53,938 nt of DNA, taken from the NCBI GenBank assembly GCA_964423525.1, contig CAYRFU010000005.1, forward strand, positions 1 through 53,938. The letters are read 5' to 3'. Positions 34,827-44,049 of the stretch are shown in pieces. The DNA is from an uncultured Burkholderiales bacterium (GTDB lineage: Bacteria; Vulcanimicrobiota; Xenobia; Xenobiales; JADMJV01). The notes beneath the pieces are model-generated. The model was given only the letters and a program-made list of their open reading frames with translations. It did no database searches and was not told where the DNA came from. Within the stretch, counting starts at the first letter, position 1; the number at the start of each line of letters is the position of its first letter. Both the position numbers and the translations under genes were made by a program.

Positions 34827-35621
34827 CTAAAGACCCAGTGCCTTCTCGAGGTCGGGATGCCAACGGGGCTTTCGTTTATCCAAAAAGGCTCCCAGGCCTT
34901 CGCGCCCCTCATCGGAGCCGCGGGCTTGGGCGGTTGCTTGGGCGGTGATGGCGGTCTGTTCGGCGTGGGGAGTCTCCCAAATCTGACGCATGAGCGACTT
35001 GGTGGCGGCCTGAGCCCCGGTGGCTCCAGACAGCAACGCCCTGACCGTCTTGTCGACCTCCTCGTCGAGATTGTCGGCCACGGCGTGAACCATTCCGATG
35101 CGAAGCGCCTCCTCGGCCCCGAAACGGCTGCCCGTCAAGAAGCGAGCCCGAGCCTCGGAAAACCCGAGCCGACGCATCACGAAGGGGGAGATCACCGCGG
35201 GAACGATGCCCAAGCGCACCTCGGTAAAGCCGAAGAGAGCTTTGGGGCCGGCGATGGCCAGGTCCACACTGCAAACTAAGCCGCTTCCTCCTCCCAGAGC
35301 TGCCCCCTGAACTCTGGCCACCACAGGTTTGGGGCAACGGTCGATGGTCTCAAAAAGATTGGCCATGCGTCGGCCAGAAGCGCGGTTCTCGTCATCACTG
35401 GCGTGAGCCTGAGAACGCATCCAATCGATATCGGCCCCAGCTGAAAAAGATTTTCCCTCGCCAGCCAGCACGATCACTCGGGCGGCCGGGTCCTGAGCCA
35501 GGTTCTCGAAGGTTTGATTGAGTTCCTCAATAACGGTGGCGTTGAAGGCGTTGTGGACTTCCGGTCGATTGAGGGTCACCCGGGCCACACCCCGGTCGAT
35601 AGCGATTTTGATGGTTTCCAT
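34827..35621 (-). CDS. Enoyl-CoA hydratase/isomerase (crotonase) family protein
   Basis: VTLNRPEVHNAFN and LAGEGKSFSAGADIDWM motifs. Confidence 0.9.
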   Translation of the reverse strand: METIKIAIDRGVARVTLNRPEVHNAFNATVIEELNQTFENLAQDPAARVIVLAGEGKSFSAGADIDWMRSQAHASDDENRASGRRMANLFETIDRCPKPVVARVQGAALGGGSGLVCSVDLAIAGPKALFGFTEVRLGIVPAVISPFVMRRLGFSEARARFLTGSRFGAEEALRIGMVHAVADNLDEEVDKTVRALLSGATGAQAATKSLMRQIWETPHAEQTAITAQATAQARGSDEGREGLGAFLDKRKPRWHPDLEKALGL

Positions 35622-35699
35622 CGCCGGAGCTTTTGCCCCCTCGGCAGGAATCCTTCCAGGAAGGTCCGAGTTCGGCCAGAGCAGAAGCAGCTTGGATAT

Positions 35700-37004
35700 A
35701 TGAAGACAGAAAACAAGCGATATGGAATTCTAGTGGGTGGTGGACCAGCCCCTGGAATCAACTCGGTGATCAGCTCCGTGACCATCGAGGCGACCAAGCG
35801 CGGCCACACGGTGATCGGAATCTACGACGGCTTCCGACACCTGATGGACGGTAACACCAAGATCGAGTTCCTGACCATCCCCAAAGTGACTCGAATCCAT
35901 CGCCTCGGCGGCAGCATTCTGCACACCTCACGAGCCAATCCCACCAAGAACGAAGTCCATCTCCGCAATACCGTCGAGACCCTCAAAGACATCGGGATCA
36001 CCCACCTGGTCACGATCGGCGGCGACGACACCCTCTTTTCAGCTACCACAGTAGCCGAGTATTCGCGGAAATACCTCAACCACGAGTTGTCCTTCTGCCA
36101 CGTGCCCAAAACGATCGACAACGACCTCCCGCTGCCGGCGGGCATCCCTACCTTCGGATTCGAGACGGCTCGAGCCGAAGGAGCCCGAATGATCTCCACC
36201 TACTTCACCGATGCACGCGCTACCGGCCGCTGGTTCGTGGTCGTGGCCATGGGCCGAAAGACCGGCCATCTCGCTCTGGGAATCGGCAAGTCAGCCTCGG
36301 CCACCTTGACGCTCGTGCCCGAGGAGTTCCCCAACCGGCTCAGTCTGCCCCTGATCGTAGACACCATCGCGGGCTCGGTGATCAAGCGGCTGGCCCTGGG
36401 TCGCCCTCACGGCGTGGCTATCGTGGCCGAGGGATTCCTGGAATTCCTCGACGAGGGAGAGCTGAAAAAGCTCCTGACCAGCCACCAATTCCTGGAGCAC
36501 GACGAGCACGGCCACCTGAGGCTGGCTGAGCTCAATTTCTCGGACATCCTCAAATTCTCCCTGCGCAAGCGCCTGGCCGAGTTCGGTATCGACCTCCGTA
36601 TCATCGACCAGGAGATCGGCTACGAGCTCCGCTGCGTCCCCCCCTGTGCCTTCGACATCGACTACACGCGCAATCTCGGCTTCGGGGCGGTCGACTTTCT
36701 TGAGAACGGAGGGACGAGCGCGATGATCACCATTCAAGGCGACCGCTTTGTGCCCATGACCTTCGCCGATCTTCAGGACGAGAGCACTGGCAAAACCCGG
36801 ATCCGAGCCGTTGATATCCGGTCTCTTTCCTTTCGCATCGCTCGCGAGTATATGATTCGCTTAAACAGGACCGATGTCGAAAACGAAGAGACCCTTCGTC
36901 GCTTGGCCTCGGTCGCTCACCTCTCGCCCGAGCAGTTCCGTCAAGAGTTCGACCACGTCCTGACCGACTACGTCCCGGTCGACCCAGTCCCGATTCAAGC
37001 CTGA
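35700..37004 (+). CDS. pfp: 6-phosphofructokinase, PPi-dependent-type signature
   Basis: Start taken at ATG 35700 (MKTENKRYGILVGGGPAPGIN). GGDDT replaces the GGDGS of ATP-dependent enzymes. PKTIDNDL is present. Confidence 0.85.
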   Translation: MKTENKRYGILVGGGPAPGINSVISSVTIEATKRGHTVIGIYDGFRHLMDGNTKIEFLTIPKVTRIHRLGGSILHTSRANPTKNEVHLRNTVETLKDIGITHLVTIGGDDTLFSATTVAEYSRKYLNHELSFCHVPKTIDNDLPLPAGIPTFGFETARAEGARMISTYFTDARATGRWFVVVAMGRKTGHLALGIGKSASATLTLVPEEFPNRLSLPLIVDTIAGSVIKRLALGRPHGVAIVAEGFLEFLDEGELKKLLTSHQFLEHDEHGHLRLAELNFSDILKFSLRKRLAEFGIDLRIIDQEIGYELRCVPPCAFDIDYTRNLGFGAVDFLENGGTSAMITIQGDRFVPMTFADLQDESTGKTRIRAVDIRSLSFRIAREYMIRLNRTDVENEETLRRLASVAHLSPEQFRQEFDHVLTDYVPVDPVPIQA

Positions 37005-37443
37005 ACGGGACCCTGTAGTGTCGGCTCCTGTTGGAGCGAGCGAATGCCCGGCCTGCGAGAGTGAACCAAAAGCTTAAGAAGTTGTAAACTTTTTCGCAAA
37101 GAGTCCAATCGGAGAGGATCCTCGCACGGCGCCGTTGTAGAGGTTCAACAACCGCCTATGTCTTCTTAAGGACCACCATGCACGAGGCTCTTAAAAAATC
37201 AATCTCGGTGGAGTTGGTCTCGTTCGTCGGAGAGAAAACCGATTCTCTACCGAAGACCAGACCGCTGCCACGTCTGCAAGTGACACCCAGCCAATTGACG
37301 AAGCATCGATCACTGAGGACGACCCAAGGGTCATTGCTGAGGCTAAGGGGAAGCCCAAACGAGAAAGTCGCGAGACTGGGACAACCCCGCCCCCGGCTTC
37401 CGAACCAAGCCCGACGGAAGTAGCCACCGGCATCGACGGCATC

Positions 37444-38487
37444 GTGCGAACGGTCGAAACGACCGCCCGTGGGAGCTTGGTAGAACTTGAACCGACCACC
37501 TCTTTGGTGGCCCCGGCCGGTCGCAATCCCTTCGCTGCCCACCTCAAGGCGGAACGTCCTCCCACCAGCCTGAGGACTGAAAGCTTCAATCTTTTTCAGC
37601 ACGATAGCCAAGGAGAGTTCGTTTGGAAGAAAGACGGGCCTCCCTCATCAGGCCACATTCACACCCACCCGATCGGGGTCCACGTTCACAGCGAAACGGG
37701 CGAGAGAATTCTTGTTAAGGGTGGCCCCAGCCACACCTTACGCGCGGATTTCGCTACCTCCAGATTCATGGAGATCGCTGATTTGGAAGCTCCCAGGTCT
37801 AGTCTCATCAAAGATGAAAAAGGGTTGCTCCTAGGGATCGAATTCTTGGAGGGCTACGAAGGAGGCATGGAGCTCCCCGAGCGCTTCCACGATGACGAGC
37901 GAATCCAAAAGGGTCTCCTAGTTCAGACCATGGTCTTCAACTACGACTGTGTCCCCTGGAACTTTATGTGGGAGAAGGAAGGCGGCCAGGGAGTTTCCTT
38001 CATCGACTTTGGCGCGAGTTGTGGTTCCCGAGCCCAGGGCGGTTTTAACGGTTTCCCCGACAAAGTGGACGCCGAGCAGCTCAGGCACGTCTTGACTAAT
38101 CCGCAGTTTGGCGGGCCCGCCAACCCGGCTTTTGACAACCTCGTTCCTCTTGCCCAGGTAGAGAAAGGCCAAATTGTCGTCAAGAAACCTGAACTGATGC
38201 GGGAAATGGTGACAACTCTCTCAAGAATCACTGACGAGTCTATCGATACAGTCGTTAGAGAAGCCTGGGAAGACATCCCTCGCGAAGAATCCCTAGCAGA
38301 TCTGCAAGGCCGACTTGCGAAGCTGGACTCGAAAAGTGAGTACAAATCCTCGTTGGCGCGACAGACCATTCAGGTCATTCTCGACGACTTCGAAGGAGAC
38401 CAGGCCGCCTATTTTGCTCACGCCCTCAAGGGCCGGCGAGACAGCCTTCTGGAAATGTTCAAACCCCATACGAGATCCGACTCATGA
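37444..38487 (+). CDS. Atypical protein-kinase-fold protein (hypothetical)
   Basis: GTG 37444 is the first canonical start in a frame open from 37195. Motif order is ILVK(92)G, E110, NYD(168)CVPWN(173)FMW, then FID(188)FG, with kinase-like spacing. Confidence 0.65.
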   Translation: MRTVETTARGSLVELEPTTSLVAPAGRNPFAAHLKAERPPTSLRTESFNLFQHDSQGEFVWKKDGPPSSGHIHTHPIGVHVHSETGERILVKGGPSHTLRADFATSRFMEIADLEAPRSSLIKDEKGLLLGIEFLEGYEGGMELPERFHDDERIQKGLLVQTMVFNYDCVPWNFMWEKEGGQGVSFIDFGASCGSRAQGGFNGFPDKVDAEQLRHVLTNPQFGGPANPAFDNLVPLAQVEKGQIVVKKPELMREMVTTLSRITDESIDTVVREAWEDIPREESLADLQGRLAKLDSKSEYKSSLARQTIQVILDDFEGDQAAYFAHALKGRRDSLLEMFKPHTRSDS

Positions 38488-38524
38488 GAATCCTTCCTAG
38501 AAACTCACCGAGTTTAGACCGACC

Positions 38525-39067
38525 ATGAACAGCGAAGTGAAAGCTCTTATTTCCAGGCTACAGGCCTGCGAGAGGTATAACGATACCACGATGATACTTC
38601 AGAATCTGACTGAAGACGCCAGTGGAGCACGGCTCGCTAAAGGAGTGAGAATCGAGGTCGGACCGATAGGTCGGATCAAGAGAGAGTCGGAAGCCCTTTC
38701 TCGAATCGAAGCCCTAGATTTGAGCTTCGCTCCGAAGCTGGTAGAAGTCATCGAAAAGGACGACTTCGGAGTTCTGGTGACACGGCTCGGAACTCATGAC
38801 GACCAATCTGTTCGCCAGGAGGAATTTGGCTACGAACCAGATTTCCGACTTTCGGTGCAAGCCAAACAACGACTCTACCGTGACGTGGACATGCTGACAA
38901 ACGCAGAACTCTACAATGGCGCCGTCCACAGATATGGGTGTTGGTATGTTCACAATGCTACTGACCAACTAGTCGTCTTGCCCTGGTTCCGCCTGACCGA
39001 GGACGAGTCGCTCGAAGAGCGGGAATCCTGTCGACAGGACTTCAAGCGAATGGTGGAGCTATCCTGA
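38525..39067 (+). CDS. Hypothetical protein (180 aa), possibly a degenerate small kinase-like fold
   Basis: The ORF fills the gap between its neighbours. RESEALSRIEALDLSFAPKLVEV resembles the N-lobe of APH/RIO-type kinases. No catalytic motif and no strong SD. Confidence 0.55.
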   Translation: MNSEVKALISRLQACERYNDTTMILQNLTEDASGARLAKGVRIEVGPIGRIKRESEALSRIEALDLSFAPKLVEVIEKDDFGVLVTRLGTHDDQSVRQEEFGYEPDFRLSVQAKQRLYRDVDMLTNAELYNGAVHRYGCWYVHNATDQLVVLPWFRLTEDESLEERESCRQDFKRMVELS

Positions 39068-39109
39068 ATCAGCAGTTGATGTGCTGAGAAGGAGCTGCTG
39101 GAGGCCGAG

Positions 39110-42100
39110 ATGTTCAACAAGCTCAACCAAATAGCCGGACAGAAGTTCCAACCGGCTCCCAAGCTCGCTAGTAGCAATCCACTCTCAGTGGAACCGGCCC
39201 TGCCAGAGCCGCTAGACGAGAAATCAACTCCCACCCTGAAGCCTTTTTCGGTCTACAGTAACAAAGAGTTTAAACCCCTGCCACTAGTCGAGGGTCTAGA
39301 CTACAAGCCTGCATATTCCAGTATTGAGAGCTTCTCAGAAGAGGAAACCTCTTCTGAGGAAAAGGAATCGTTTACCCACCAACCTGCCCATCTCTTTCCC
39401 CCCCCGCCCAAGTTACTGGTAGACTTAGATGAACCTCTTTCGAACTTCACGTCTTTTAAAGCGCACTCCCTCTCCACCGCCTTTATGACTGCAAGCCTTC
39501 GGAGTATGGTTGATGGGTCAAATTCCAACTACAAGGGTCTGGCCAAAGCCCACGGAGTAAAATCAGACATGCACGTTGGCGTGGAGCTTGAACCAGCTCT
39601 CGGTCAAGGCGCCGCCGAGAAGAGACTAATAGAATGGCGAATGGGTCAAGTCATCTCTCTCCTCGACGGGGGGCATCACGAAGTTGCCAAAGCAGTCGCT
39701 GAAGGTAAGCATGATCAACTTCTGGGGAAGTCTGTCCTAGAATCGAAGACCTCGGCTCAGAAGTCACCAGTGGCCAAAGTCAAAGCCTGGTTTGGCAAAG
39801 TGATTGAAGCCTTAACAAAGACGACGAAAGACCCGAGTTTCGCCCTGGCCGTTTCGATGACAACCGGCACTACTGGACCCGTCCTCTCATCAACCTCGGA
39901 AGCACTCAAGACACCTGATGAGACTGCTGAAGGCCCCTCGCCAACCAGCCCACCATCTGAAAAGGTCCTCGTTCCCCCCCTGTGGGGGAACAAAGTGACC
40001 TCGTCTACCCAATTAAACGAGTTGCTGGACGAGGTGGTGGAGATCCTTCTCAAGCCTACGCCCAGAAAATTCCGAGACGAGAGTGATTCAGTCGACCAAG
40101 AAACTTCATCGACTCAGCCAGTTACCAGACCCGAAAAGACCGAGGTCAAGACCGGCCAACTTTGCCTTGACCTGGGCCGATTGGGGCCGAAGTTCGGTGA
40201 CCGTTTGCCGGAGCCAGATACAGCAGAAACCAGTCAACCCGAATCGGCACCATCCGATCACAAAGATCAGTTCAAGCTGGACCTCTCACTCTACCAAAGC
40301 ACCCGGGACTGGCCGGGTGCTGAAATTGATTGCCATGAGTGGTCCTTAGAACTTGCCCGTGACCCAGATTATCGAGCAGAAACTGTTCCAGAAAACCTGA
40401 GAGCCGTCCGGGTCGGCATTCCTGGTCGGATTCGAACGGCAGCCGAGCTCAACGATCAACAGGTCACCGAGGTTCTCAATGCCCAACTCCAACCCGTCTC
40501 CATAGCCGCTGTCGGCGAGTTACTAGACCAGTTTCCCCACGATAAAAGGCCGCTAGCAACCGCTGCTCTGGAAGTGCTTTCCCGTTCTGCTAGTCTGGAC
40601 CACTATCAAAGCTTGGCCGACCACATTGAACTTAGGGGCAAGCCAGAAGAGGAAAACGGCAGTCACAAACCCGTAAAACTCTACTCAGAAGCTGATGGCT
40701 CGCTCGCCGACGCCTTACGCTACACCGTTTCGCGCAAGAGACTGTTCGATTGCAAAAGCCCTATCGAGTTGACTAATTGCAAAGACGAAGAACCCTGTCT
40801 TCTCCTCGATCAGGCCATGGTCAAACGACTAGAAGACAGCCCAGAGCTGGTCGATGAATTCGTGAAGGCCAAATCGCCGGTCCTCTGCCCTTCCATTCAG
40901 ATCGCAGGATGCAACCCTTCCACCGTAGCGAGTGCGGAGAGCCTACAGCCGAAACTGTCATCAATTGTAGCCGCAGCTGAGAAGGCGAAAGAAGCTGGCG
41001 TCAAGGCCTCATCGGATACCGATCTAGTCGAGCAGGTCCTCGACAGTTTGGCACGTGAGCGCCTGGCAGCGATCAACCCAGCCCTGCTTGACCGTTACGA
41101 AACAGTTCCGATCAAGCCGTTGAAAACCGATGAAAGCGCAGGAGAACTAGACACTCAGGCCCGGATCGCCTACCAGCTTAACGGAAGCCAGGCCATTACT
41201 CTCGAACAAACGACAAAGATACTCGACAAAGTCCCAGAAGAGTGGAGGTCAATGGCTCGTGAATTGGTCAGCCAAAATTCCGAGGTCCAAAGCCCGAGGG
41301 CGATGTCCCAACTAGCCCGTACACAACTTCGCCGAATCCACGAGTTTGCTAAAACCGTTGGAGTCGAAGCTGAGGACATCCGTTTCGTTGTATACGACTC
41401 CAAAAAGAGCTACGGAGTTTATAGTCACCTTTTTAAGGAAGCCAATCTGAACCAGCTACGACCTTCGCAATTTGTAAGCCAAGGGGCACTCCCGGACGTT
41501 CGCGAAAACCTCAAAGGCAAAAAGCAACTCTATGTAATTTTGGATGACTATGCCGGCTCAGGCGAAAGCCTCTTAATTGACGCCCGTCGTAGGGTCCGTA
41601 ACCTGGTCGGAAAGGATCCTCAAATCGTCTGCGCCCCTTCAATTTCAACGACGCAAGCTTTTGAGGCGCTCAACAGAGCTCGGAGGCCAACGATCGACCC
41701 CAACTGCCAGCTGATAGCAGGTCGGGTTATCGCTTGTGTCGAGGATAGCCCCCTGGCTATTGAAGGCGACAGAGCCTACCGATCAGCTGTCATCGGCGGA
41801 CTTGGCGATGACTGCGGATGGAGTCGGACTGGTTCCTGCGTCTCCCTACCTTACATGGGCCCGGATAACAACGGCTCCCTCTTCGGGGGAGACATGTTTA
41901 ACCCTTTCTTCGTCATCAATGGCAATACGTCCGCCTGTAAATCGGCAGGGCAGGTGAGGCCGATCACCGACCTTCTTGAGCCTGTCGCGCGGGGGGAACT
42001 TCAAGCGCTCGGTCACGACCTTGAACAAAGGCCGAGTCTCAAAGGAGAGGATGTGGAGCCGCTCGGTGACCGCGTCATCGAAGTTCTCGCCTTAGCCGAA

Positions 42101-42373
42101 AAAACCGGCGGTATCTCAAGAATTCATGAGCAAAGCATTCCATCCTCCGTCTCCCGAACGGTCGTTGAGCGGCACGGAGAGAGAGCCAAACAACTCGCGG
42201 ACCGATGTCGAGAGGCTCGTGAAAAGACCTCACCAGGTTCCGCTGAAGAGCTTTTAGGACTGGCTCATGAAGTTCTGGTCCGAAACAGAAAGGAAATTGA
42301 AACAATTACGCAGGCTCAAGCCAACAACGACAGACCACTTGACAGAGCAGGCAGCGCCGGCAACACCTCCTAG
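39110..42373 (+). CDS. Large hypothetical protein (1087 aa) with a C-terminal PRTase-like PRPP-binding loop
   Basis: GGAGG lies 5 nt upstream of the ATG. The N-terminal ~400 aa are Pro/Ser/Glu/Thr-rich and look disordered. LYVILDDYAGSGESL (nt 41528-41572) fits the type I phosphoribosyltransferase loop. Confidence 0.7.
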   Translation: MFNKLNQIAGQKFQPAPKLASSNPLSVEPALPEPLDEKSTPTLKPFSVYSNKEFKPLPLVEGLDYKPAYSSIESFSEEETSSEEKESFTHQPAHLFPPPPKLLVDLDEPLSNFTSFKAHSLSTAFMTASLRSMVDGSNSNYKGLAKAHGVKSDMHVGVELEPALGQGAAEKRLIEWRMGQVISLLDGGHHEVAKAVAEGKHDQLLGKSVLESKTSAQKSPVAKVKAWFGKVIEALTKTTKDPSFALAVSMTTGTTGPVLSSTSEALKTPDETAEGPSPTSPPSEKVLVPPLWGNKVTSSTQLNELLDEVVEILLKPTPRKFRDESDSVDQETSSTQPVTRPEKTEVKTGQLCLDLGRLGPKFGDRLPEPDTAETSQPESAPSDHKDQFKLDLSLYQSTRDWPGAEIDCHEWSLELARDPDYRAETVPENLRAVRVGIPGRIRTAAELNDQQVTEVLNAQLQPVSIAAVGELLDQFPHDKRPLATAALEVLSRSASLDHYQSLADHIELRGKPEEENGSHKPVKLYSEADGSLADALRYTVSRKRLFDCKSPIELTNCKDEEPCLLLDQAMVKRLEDSPELVDEFVKAKSPVLCPSIQIAGCNPSTVASAESLQPKLSSIVAAAEKAKEAGVKASSDTDLVEQVLDSLARERLAAINPALLDRYETVPIKPLKTDESAGELDTQARIAYQLNGSQAITLEQTTKILDKVPEEWRSMARELVSQNSEVQSPRAMSQLARTQLRRIHEFAKTVGVEAEDIRFVVYDSKKSYGVYSHLFKEANLNQLRPSQFVSQGALPDVRENLKGKKQLYVILDDYAGSGESLLIDARRRVRNLVGKDPQIVCAPSISTTQAFEALNRARRPTIDPNCQLIAGRVIACVEDSPLAIEGDRAYRSAVIGGLGDDCGWSRTGSCVSLPYMGPDNNGSLFGGDMFNPFFVINGNTSACKSAGQVRPITDLLEPVARGELQALGHDLEQRPSLKGEDVEPLGDRVIEVLALAEKTGGISRIHEQSIPSSVSRTVVERHGERAKQLADRCREAREKTSPGSAEELLGLAHEVLVRNRKEIETITQAQANNDRPLDRAGSAGNTS

Positions 42374-42439
42374 AGCTGCGGAAGCAAGTTCCGCCACCCA
42401 TGGTCGGACGTTCTCGCGTGACTTGTTGGGCATCGCTCT

Positions 42440-42470
42440 GCCGGACCCCATTGTCAATGGGGCTTCCGGC
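42440..42470. terminator. Hairpin between convergent genes (possible bidirectional terminator)
   Basis: GCCGGACCCCAT-TGTCA-ATGGGG(CT)TCCGGC gives 12 bp with one 2-nt bulge. There is no U tract on either side. Confidence 0.45.
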
Positions 42471-42477
42471 CTAGCTC

Positions 42478-44049
42478 CTAGAGAGGGATGTTGCCGTGCT
42501 TGCGAGCGGGAGCGGTGACCCGTTTGCCCTCGAGAGTGCGCAGAGCTTCGATCAACCGCACACGAGTCTGGGCCGGCTCGATGATGTCGTCGATGTATCC
42601 GCGAGAAGCGGCCACGTAGGGCGAGGCAAAGCGGGCCGTGTAGTCGTCAACAAGTTCTTGCCGCTTCTGCTCCGGGTCAGCCGCTTCCGCTAGTTCGCGC
42701 CGGAAAATGATATTGATGGCCCCCTGAGGACCCATCACGGCGATCTCAGCGGTGGGCCAGGCGAGGTTGAGGTCGGCCCGGATATGAGAAGAGCACATGA
42801 CGTCGTAGGCCCCGCCGTAGGCTTTCCGAAGAATCACCGTCACTTTGGGAACAGTGGCTTCGCAAAAGGCATAGAGGAGCTTGGCACCGTGCTTGATGAT
42901 ACCACCGTGCTCCTGTTGAACGCCGGGCAGAAAGCCCGGCACATCGACCAACGTGACCAGAGGGATGTTAAAAGCGTCACAGAAGCGCACGAACCGAGCT
43001 CCTTTGATGGAAGCTTCAATATCGAGCACTCCGGCCAGCGTCTGAGGGTTATTCGCCACCACGCCGACAGGGGCTCCGTCGAGCCGGCCAAAGCCGACCA
43101 CGATGTTGCGAGCCCAGTCAGAGTGAATCTCGAGAAACTCGTTCTCGTCGACTAGCTCAGTGACCACCTCCCGCACGTCGTAGGGTTTGTTGGGGTCGGA
43201 AGGGACCGTTTTTTCCAAGGCAGGGCACAGTCGGTCGGCGGTGTCTTGGGGAGTTTTGCGAGGGGGTTGCTCCAAGTTGTTGGAGGGCATAAAAGAGAGC
43301 AACTGACGCAGGGCCTCGAAACAATCCTGCTCGTCTTCGGCCGTCAAGTGGGCCACGCCCGACACCGATGAGTGGGTGCCTGCCCCTCCTAGACGTTCGA
43401 AGGTCACCTCTTCATTGGTCACCGTCTTGATAACATCGGGTCCCGTGATGAACATGTGGGACTTCTCTTCCACCATCACGATAAAGTCGGTGATGGCGGG
43501 AGAATAGACGGCTCCGCCGGCACAGGGACCGAGAACGGCTGAGAGCTGGGGCACCACTCCCGAGGCCTTGGTGTTGCGGTAGAAAATCTCGGCATAGCCT
43601 CCCAAGGAGACGACCCCCTCCTGAATCCTGGCTCCGCCGGAGTCGTTCAGACCGATAATGGGAGCCCCGTTCTGAACGGCCAGATCCATCACTTTGCAGA
43701 TCTTGGCGGCGTGCATTTCCCCCAGAGAGCCCCCAAACACCGTGAAATCCTGAGCAAAAAGATACACCAGACGTCCGTCGATGGTGCCGTGTCCGGTGAC
43801 CACGCCGTCTCCCAGAAACTTCTTGTCTTCCATCCCAAAGTCTGAGCAGTTGTGGGTAACGAATCGGTCGAGTTCTCGGAAACTACCCGGGTCGAGCAGC
43901 TGCTCCATTCGCTCTCGAGCGGTCAGCTTGCCTCGCTTGTGCTGGGCTTCAATACGGGATTCACCGCCCCCGAGAGCGCTCTTTTCACGTTGCTCTCGAA
44001 GCCGTTCGATTTTCTCGTCCATGGTGGCTAAGCGCGTTTTCGTTTTCAC
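42478..44049 (-). CDS. Acyl-CoA carboxylase carboxyltransferase (beta) subunit, propionyl-CoA carboxylase-like
   Basis: [37 protein letters not shown] and GGAYDVM motifs. Confidence 0.93.

Follow-up and report, generated by a model that had tools for sequence, protein, structure and literature searches.

What do three co-directional, comparatively A/T-rich genes encode that are located among core metabolic genes of an uncultured bacterium assigned to the Vulcanimicrobiota? The genes lie on contig CAYRFU010000005.1, whose 53,938 nt, analyzed here as a whole, are referred to as the window. An initial annotation by eye had treated them as one module of unknown function, in which a kinase-like protein, a degenerate kinase-like partner and a protein with a phosphoribosyltransferase-type loop might act together in an effector, conflict or nucleotide-modification system. 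The three open reading frames (ORFs) were confirmed at the following positions, and their products are designated P1, P2 and P3:

37444-38487, plus strand: P1, 347 aa as called, GTG start
38525-39067, plus strand: P2, 180 aa
39110-42373, plus strand: P3, 1087 aa

P1 and P2 are separated by 37 nt, P2 and P3 by 42 nt. Effector or conflict module proved to be the right category, and the unit is not a housekeeping one. According to our analysis, P2 and P3 are best explained as an immunity-toxin (effector) pair of the polymorphic-toxin type, a reading to which we assign a rough probability of 0.6. The evidence starts with P3, which is composed as follows:

39110-40333, plus strand: N-terminal region (residues 1-408), rich in S, P, E, K and T and, by its composition, probably largely disordered
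39494-39739, plus strand: helical element (residues 129-210) within this region
40334-41293, plus strand: N-terminal half of the conserved module (residues 409-728), a helical and alpha/beta domain modeled by AlphaFold2 (AF2) with a predicted local distance difference test score (pLDDT) above 90
41294-41959, plus strand: PRTase-CE domain of the module (residues 729-950), recognized by Pfam (PF24390), PADLOC, PDB profile search and Foldseek
41402-41422, plus strand: KSY motif in the PRTase-CE domain
41531-41572, plus strand: phosphoribosyl pyrophosphate (PRPP) loop YVILDDYAGSGESL (residues 808-821) in the PRTase-CE domain
41846-41875, plus strand: LPYMGPDNNG in the PRTase-CE domain
41960-42373, plus strand: helical tail at the C-terminus (residues 951-1087, with the stop codon), common only to the closest relatives P0004-P0007

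Judged from sequence profiles and the structural model, P3 residues ~409-950 are a conserved two-domain module of ~520 aa, the C-terminal half of which is a phosphoribosyltransferase (PRTase) of the PRTase-CE type with an intact PRPP loop. The loop had already been noticed by eye, and Pfam bears this out: residues 729-865 match PRTase-CE with 27.2 bits (E = 4.3e-6; gathering cut-off 27.0). As in the type I PRTase superfamily, a hydrophobic strand is followed by two acidic and then by small residues. PADLOC returned weak matches of P3 to retron type III-A PRTases (PRTase_III-A, 6e-4). A PDB profile search of the module aligned solely type I PRTases at the PRPP loop, among them 1wd5 (E = 0.004), orotate phosphoribosyltransferases (OPRTs) and purine phosphoribosyltransferases. 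In an alignment of 25 module sequences (A1), Y538, D567 and G600 of the N-terminal half as well as S767, D812, D813, G818, M916, P918 and N921 (P3 numbering) are invariant, and P3 keeps all of them. The alignment is characterized by the motifs KSY, vvLDDxAGSGxSL and FPYMxPDNNN. P3 contains G903-x14-P918-D-N-N; the G, the P and the second N of this motif vary hardly or not at all in the alignment.

The AF2 model of the module computed with A1 reached a pLDDT of 91.2 and a predicted template modeling (TM) score of 0.91. In this model, the C-terminal half displays a Rossmann-like core with a parallel beta-sheet. Foldseek related this half to OPRT, uracil phosphoribosyltransferase, hypoxanthine-guanine phosphoribosyltransferase and PyrR (TMt 0.36-0.46, probability 0.75-0.99). 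In the viral structure library BFVD, it matched giant-virus proteins and, with a probability of 1.0 and a root-mean-square deviation of 4.7 Å, a 'PRTase-CE domain-containing protein'. For the whole module, Foldseek found no similar solved structure in the PDB (TM score 0.25 or less). A relationship to SIS/GlmS was considered and rejected, since a TM score of 0.25 or less and a root-mean-square deviation above 12 Å reflect only a generic two-Rossmann layout. In the N-terminal region (residues 1-408) no Pfam domain was seen. Its helical element is present twice each in P0102, P0136 and P0142, module-less proteins of ~620-720 aa, where a beta-rich segment with the motif 'EFNNN' at its end comes after each copy; the genomic context of P0102 (L076) was uninformative. 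The C-terminal tail is helical in the AF2 model up to residue 997.

Relatives of P3 display a characteristic architecture. A word-indexed search of 5.8 billion proteins detected none. An exhaustive HMMER scan yielded 192, 27 of them below 1e-30, and all align to P3 residues ~425-950. In 146 database representatives, the module usually forms the very C-terminal cassette of the protein. Of 138 representatives, 103 end no more than 30 aa behind it, 40 have an N-terminal extension of more than 300 aa and 25 one of more than 800 aa, and the proteins comprise up to 4222 aa. Seven representatives have a zincin-like eCIS_core/DUF4157 N-terminus (confirmed by Pfam for P0026 and P0035) and four, including the Bdellovibrionota homologue in locus L002, contain annexin repeats. 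Other N-termini consist of Gly/Ala-rich hydrophobic stretches or, in P0007, carry a signal peptide. Neither a P1- nor a P2-like domain is fused to the module proteins (149 representatives). In its domain arrangement, the family corresponds to polymorphic toxins and cargo effectors.

Loci were surveyed in one genome of each species with a single peptide pattern, PYM[ASG]PDNN. This census comprises 73 module-encoding loci from Bdellovibrionota, which contribute the closest homologues (38-39% identity), Myxococcota (Kofleriaceae, Haliangiales, Polyangia), Vampirovibrio chlorellavorus and many Melainabacteria/Gastranaerophilales; single Fusobacterium and Brachyspira bins also carry the module. The family is enriched in predatory bacteria, and its carriers are mainly predatory or host-associated lineages. 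On viral contigs no relative of the module was found. Tandem arrays of two to three stand-alone module paralogues, none with a P2-like neighbor, were observed in Vampirovibrio and gut Gastranaerophilales (L015, L016, L031, L033-L035, L037, L046, L049, L057, L063 and L071).

P2 belongs to a family that accompanies the module. In L002 (1.5e-24), L003 (2.7e-15), L011, L013 and L006, a tblastn search with P2 hit the ORF that comes directly after the module gene. Iterative profile searches extended the family to 20 loci of the genome census and, with L077 and L078, to 22 loci besides the window, distributed over three phyla. In all 22, the P2-family ORF has the orientation of the module gene and follows it directly, and often the stop and start codons overlap by 4 bp. 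Apart from L077 and L078, these are 15 of the 16 Myxococcota/Bdellovibrionota loci and five Melainabacteria loci, the latter encoding module proteins with N-terminal extensions. To exclude iteration artefacts, profiles restricted to one clade were built. Both the Myxococcota-only (1.8e-10) and the Melainabacteria-only profile (3.7e-9) recovered P2 of the window, and no other of 3132 ORFs was hit even at E <= 10.

In the P2 family, only A69, P70, L124 and W154 are invariant or nearly so, and there is no invariant polar residue. Such a pattern is in keeping with a binding protein rather than with an enzyme. Neither Pfam nor the PDB yielded a relative of the family. The initial annotation had regarded P2 as a possible degenerate kinase. 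This idea had to be abandoned: hhalign gave a probability of 0.3% against the P1 family, none of 19 P2-family members matched a kinase Pfam family, and the PDB profile search revealed no kinase. Because P2-family genes strictly adjoin the module and are conserved in the manner of a binding protein, P2 is read as the putative cognate immunity protein of the module.

In relatives of the window locus, additional enzymes are found next to the P2-like gene. In the loci of the four closest relatives of P3 (L002, L003, L077 and L078), the P2-like gene is followed by an overlapping gene for an ADP-ribosylglycohydrolase (ARH; PF03747, with family-level likeness to DraG and Tri1), and two Melainabacteria loci contain a convergent ARH gene:

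L002, 10572-11585: ARH after the P2-like gene
L003, 7555-8563: ARH after the P2-like gene
L077, 5727-6737: ARH after the P2-like gene
L078, 10802-11797: ARH after the P2-like gene
L048, 3147-4067, minus strand: convergent ARH
L055, 2584-3204, minus strand: convergent ARH

No ARH gene is present in the window. The ARH linkage suggests that the module might generate a removable ribosyl-linked product or adduct. In five Myxococcota loci (L005, L007, L008, L012 and L020; e.g. L007 10211-10921), the P2-like domain forms a fusion with a conserved C-terminal domain of ~240 aa that contains the motifs RVLLPVIHP, GVFLIDQG and TSGxGTG. The P2-like proteins of L006 and L013 are of similar length (471 and 518 aa) and may carry this domain, too. 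An assignment of the fusion domain to the BtpA/SgcQ TIM barrels was not accepted, as it remained below the threshold (19-21 bits vs 30) and the PDB profile search was uninformative.

How could P2 and P3 work? The P3 module would bind PRPP and move the phosphoribosyl group onto an essential acceptor. This way, PRPP would be drained, or a toxic phosphoribosyl adduct would be made, or both, and nucleotide metabolism or a target molecule would be poisoned in the recipient cell. The intact PRPP loop and two experimentally studied PRTase toxins (see below) suggest that the module may catalyze a PRPP-dependent reaction, and by analogy to its retron relative it likely consumes PRPP. In the producer, P2, which is small, cytoplasmic and devoid of conserved catalytic residues, would bind the module, hold it inactive and so neutralize the presumed toxicity. 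It is solely from the architectures of its relatives that P3 may be assumed to be exported. A more specific proposal, which we regard as speculative and rather unlikely in this form, is a PRPP-dependent 'phosphoribosylating toxin'. It would attach ribose-5-phosphate to a protein, a nucleic acid or an essential metabolite, would be a chemical analogue of the ADP-ribosylating toxins and might serve predatory bacteria as a weapon. P2 would block it by binding, and a second enzyme would remove the adduct: in Bdellovibrionota and Melainabacteria the ARH-type glycohydrolase, in Myxococcota the BtpA-like phosphate-binding barrel fused to P2.

Several observations weigh against an interpretation of P2 and P3 as immunity protein and exported toxin. 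At the family level, the module appears as a C-terminal cassette on diverse N-termini, but P3 itself has a 137-aa tail behind it. A small, apparently cognate gene adjoins the toxin cassette in the 22 other loci and in the window, but in the window the order is inverted, with P2 upstream of P3. P3 has neither a signal peptide nor a transmembrane segment nor a recognizable secretion or trafficking domain, and no secretion apparatus genes were found in the scanned parts of the 54-kb window. The Pfam score of P3 is borderline, the relatives of the module reach 20-25 bits against PRTase-CE, and the PDB sequence matches of the module are weak (E 0.004-0.1). Furthermore, about 50 stand-alone module paralogues of ~550 aa, often arranged in tandem in Gastranaerophilales and Vampirovibrio, have no P2 neighbor. 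The module is therefore not always linked to immunity, and these paralogues either have a different immunity or are not self-toxic. Finally, simple PRPP depletion does not explain the ARH and the TIM-barrel-like domain in the relatives.

The relatives of P1 are linked neither to P2 nor to P3. The following features were assigned to P1:

37178-37443, plus strand: probable 5' extension of P1, from ATG 37178 via a 1-nt frame change near 37230-37250 (A-run) into the P1 frame
37711-37734, plus strand: motif VKGGP Lys, kinase-like
37936-37962, plus strand: motif NYDCVPWN (FNYDCVPWN), kinase-like
37999-38019, plus strand: motif IDFGAS (FIDFGAS), kinase-like
38023-38055, plus strand: motif GSRAQGGFNGF, invariant in the P1 family

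The start of the unit had been placed at 37178. An ATG is present there, but in a frame different from that of P1 as called. The P1 frame extends upstream to 37196 without a stop codon and contains no ATG, GTG or TTG in that stretch. Codon log-odds favor the ATG frame between 37178 and 37250 (+9.5 vs -6.5/-6.0 bits) and the P1 frame between 37251 and 37443 (+7.7 vs -13.8/-29.9 bits). On this basis, P1 probably starts at ATG 37178 and undergoes a frame change, which would add an S/T/P/E-rich leader of ~89 aa. Either an indel introduced during assembly or a genuine frameshift could account for the frame change.

The VKGGP Lys, NYD-x4-N, ID-x-GA and GSRAQGGFNGF are invariant among all three known P1-family sequences, and the invariant residues show the D-x4-N-x14-D spacing of protein-kinase-like enzymes. 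The motifs behind the kinase-fold signature suspected by eye are real, but statistics do not support it: The Pfam APH match has E = 0.02-0.03 over 25 residues and was obtained with the window's own member only, a match to DYRK2 has E = 0.7, and a profile search with the P1 family found no kinase. The AF2 single-sequence model of P1 has a pLDDT of 33. To judge from the motifs, a kinase fold of P1 is plausible but unproven. The sole PDB profile match, the adhesin UafA (E = 0.003), is a short local one and was judged spurious. Searches of PHROGs and NCBIfam yielded no informative match for P1, P2 or P3.

In all collections searched, P1 has two relatives only. One is P0003, a truncated TARA protein with 42% identity and the one fragment that word-indexed searches with P1 retrieved, the other the C-terminal 285 aa of a 1917-aa protein encoded in L075, a 157-kb metagenome contig. 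As this second case shows, the P1 domain, too, occurs as the C-terminal cassette of a giant protein. The 1917-aa protein (3177-8930, P1-like part 8001-8852) has an N-terminal transmembrane or signal segment. L075 has 35% GC, and its neighboring genes, which encode Nop5 and an L3 of archaeal type, point to an archaeon. Just downstream of the gene for the P1-like protein, a PHP protein and, ~1.2 kb away, an ARH (10102-11061, minus strand) are encoded. The co-occurrence of homologues of the 347-aa and the 1087-aa protein in other genomes had been proposed as a check of the three-gene module. In the loci examined they do not co-occur: Of the 75 loci with the module, which are the 73 genome loci together with L077 and L078, none encodes a P1 relative, and neither of the two P1-relative loci (L001 and L075) has P2 or the module beside it. 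A conserved module of three genes can thus not be upheld. Instead, P1 is a separate, extremely rare cassette domain, probably a second effector or accessory in the same operon, and not an obligate partner of P2 and P3. If the module is a phosphoribosylating toxin, P1 could belong to the same ribosyl-centered toolkit, because its only relative with a genomic context, that of L075, also has an ARH gene nearby.

The compositional departure of the three-gene unit, which had been noticed by eye, is confirmed by measurement but modest. GC contents of P1, P2 and P3 are 0.553, 0.523 and 0.537 compared to a mean of 0.590 (sd 0.017) for 36 other genes, and GC contents at third codon positions (GC3) are 0.629, 0.575 and 0.556 compared to 0.674 (sd 0.041). 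The four codons named previously are indeed used more frequently among their synonyms in the unit than in the rest (GAA 0.38 to 0.58, ATT 0.23 to 0.38, AAA 0.43 to 0.49, TTA 0.04 to 0.07). Leave-one-out codon-fit z-scores are -1.2, -2.1 and -2.8 for P1, P2 and P3, respectively. Two further window genes on the minus strand, 10660-11454 and 20394-21233, are about equally atypical (GC3 0.58 and 0.55; codon fit likewise); the former encodes a class I methyltransferase. The P1-P2-P3 operon may have been acquired laterally, and lower GC3 and atypical codon use count in favor of this. Around the unit, neither a tRNA nor a flanking repeat, an Rfam match (36500-43000) or a mobility gene was found, in agreement with the lack of mobility genes reported before.

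Upstream of P1, genes for an enoyl-CoA hydratase (minus strand) and a phosphofructokinase are located. The phosphofructokinase ORF as listed (35514-35700 region) has a TTG start and overlaps the opposite-strand enoyl-CoA hydratase gene by ~108 nt; its Pfam match begins at residue 70, so that the real start is probably an ATG near 35700 (MKTENKRYG...). Downstream of P3, a convergent carboxyltransferase gene follows, and the region between them contains one further feature:

42446-42462, no strand assigned: perfect 8-bp palindrome CCCCATTGtCAATGGGG inside a longer GC-rich stem, between the convergent P3 and carboxyltransferase genes

A hairpin at 42440-42470 had been thought to close the unit. 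The palindrome and the longer stem are present, but a T tract is missing, and the hairpin is absent from the terminator-scan list. What else was scanned of the window is chromosomal content of an ordinary kind, among it MoxR/DUF58/BatA/VWA genes and genes for a glycosyltransferase and RtcA. The MoxR AAA+/DUF58/BatA/multi-VWA (Bat-like) cluster occupies the first 10 kb (193-10451); it looks ordinary and unrelated to the unit.

Which other explanations compete with an immunity-toxin pair? The main rival is an intracellular defense module of the toxin-antitoxin (TA) or abortive-infection (Abi) type. Here, P3 would be a self-directed PRTase that is checked by P2 and freed on phage infection, similar to ShosTA or the effectors of type III-A retrons, and would not be exported. 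This agrees with the absence of any secretion signal from P3, with the fact that the closest experimentally studied PRTase-CE-like proteins are defense effectors, and with DS-32, a defense system composed of a PRTase and a NADAR hydrolase. However, neither a reverse transcriptase (RT) nor a non-coding RNA (ncRNA) or another PADLOC component is located nearby, the PADLOC match itself is weak, the neighborhood is not a defense island, and viral contigs lack the module. The relatives are C-terminal cassettes on proteins of 1000-4000 aa with eCIS_core, annexin, transmembrane or signal-peptide N-termini, which is no TA or Abi layout. We consider intracellular defense unlikely, albeit a rival to be reckoned with. 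Clearly less probable is a role of P2 as a chaperone, adaptor or activator required for folding, loading or activity of the module. Such a protein would be strictly co-inherited with the module, as P2 is, and in the window P2 even occupies the upstream position common for adaptors. In 22 of 23 cases, however, P2 is found immediately downstream of the cassette, often translationally coupled, which is the canonical position of an immunity gene. Moreover, P2 co-varies with the cassette and not with the variable N-terminal delivery regions, and in relatives, putative detoxifying enzymes are encoded beside it or fused to it.

The idea that a kinase and a PRPP-handling enzyme act in a joint pathway goes back to the initial annotation. 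In its full form, the kinase P1, the pseudokinase P2 and the PRTase P3 would constitute a three-enzyme route of nucleotide modification. Tight spacing and common direction of the genes, the kinase-like D-x4-N-x14-D spacing in P1 and the ARH genes near the P1-like protein of L075 as well as in several module loci, which hint at a common ribosyl theme, could be accommodated by such a route. Comparative data offer no support: P1 occurs in none of the 75 module loci, module and P2 are found in neither P1 locus, P2 is related neither to P1 nor to known kinases, and the assignment of P1 as a kinase is not significant. A joint pathway therefore appears quite improbable, slightly more so than an adaptor function of P2. 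An ordinary housekeeping or salvage PRTase flanked by two hypothetical genes, with a compositional dip by chance, would be compatible with the modest decrease in GC and with the two equally atypical genes elsewhere in the window. It is hardly conceivable in view of a 1087-aa protein with a probably disordered N-terminus that matches no NCBIfam equivalog or salvage-PRTase family and belongs to a patchy, lineage-restricted family found on giant multidomain proteins. An immunity-toxin pair formed by P2 and P3 remains the preferred reading.

How does this pair relate to systems already described? The initial annotation knew of no system with this architecture. This is only partly correct, since the PRTase-CE domain, PRTase toxins and the polymorphic toxin/immunity layout are already known. 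The module with its two domains, the P2 family and the linkage to ARH are apparently undescribed: In the literature searched, no description was found of the 520-aa module as a polymorphic cassette, of the P2 family, of the linkage to ARH and a TIM barrel or of the predator-biased distribution. PRTase-fold toxins have been recognized only recently, namely the effector of Retron-Eco11 and ShosT, and hitherto solely as intracellular defense effectors. The present locus suggests that a PRTase module of two domains and far greater size is used by giant proteins as an exchangeable cassette at the C-terminus. The outcome is a defined trio of putative toxin, immunity protein and hydrolase, together with a rare kinase-like P1 cassette with three known members. 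In addition, the ARH raises a testable question: Do some PRTase toxins make removable phosphoribosyl adducts?

Among the known systems, type III-A retrons provide an enzymatic parallel. The effector of Retron-Eco11 lowers PRPP by about 50%, and retron PRTase effectors are defined by the PRPP motif VVILTDTIGSGNQ and Gx14PNNxP (PMC12746101). The module shares with them an L-[DT]-D-x-x-G-S-G PRPP loop, G-x14-P-[DN]-N, the Pfam PRTase-CE match and the weak PADLOC matches. Because the module family has an LDDxAGSG loop and G-x14-PDNN, it belongs, as far as these motifs tell, to the same PRTase sub-clade as the retron effectors. In contrast to a type III-A retron, the window has neither an adjacent RT domain in the flanking genes nor an Rfam ncRNA (36500-43000), the PRTase is fused to an additional N-terminal domain of ~320 aa and located as a C-terminal cassette on giant proteins, and the partner is the P2 family instead of RT and multicopy single-stranded DNA. 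Polymorphic toxins, including the DUF4157/eCIS_core cargo of extracellular contractile injection systems, resemble the module family in their C-terminal cassettes, variable N-termini, adjacent small genes and patchy occurrence in lineages. They differ from the window locus, where the immunity gene precedes the toxin gene and P3 has no recognized delivery domain.

In ShosTA, ShosT is a growth-arresting toxin with a PRTase fold that disturbs nucleotide metabolism; it disrupts purine metabolism (PMC11961720). However, ShosT is compact and intracellular, and ShosA is a DNA-binding, DprA-like type IV antitoxin, whereas P2 has no such domain. Tre1-Tri1 combines an ADP-ribosyltransferase toxin with an ARH-type immunity protein. 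This is reminiscent of the ARH gene behind the immunity gene in the four closest relatives of P3 and of the ARH genes in the two Melainabacteria loci, although the toxin fold is that of a PRTase and not of an ADP-ribosyltransferase, the ARH is a third gene besides P2, and the window lacks it. The published defense system DS-32, which consists of a PRTase and a NADAR (DarG-like) hydrolase, is similar to these loci in that a PRTase is paired with a ribosyl-glycohydrolase.

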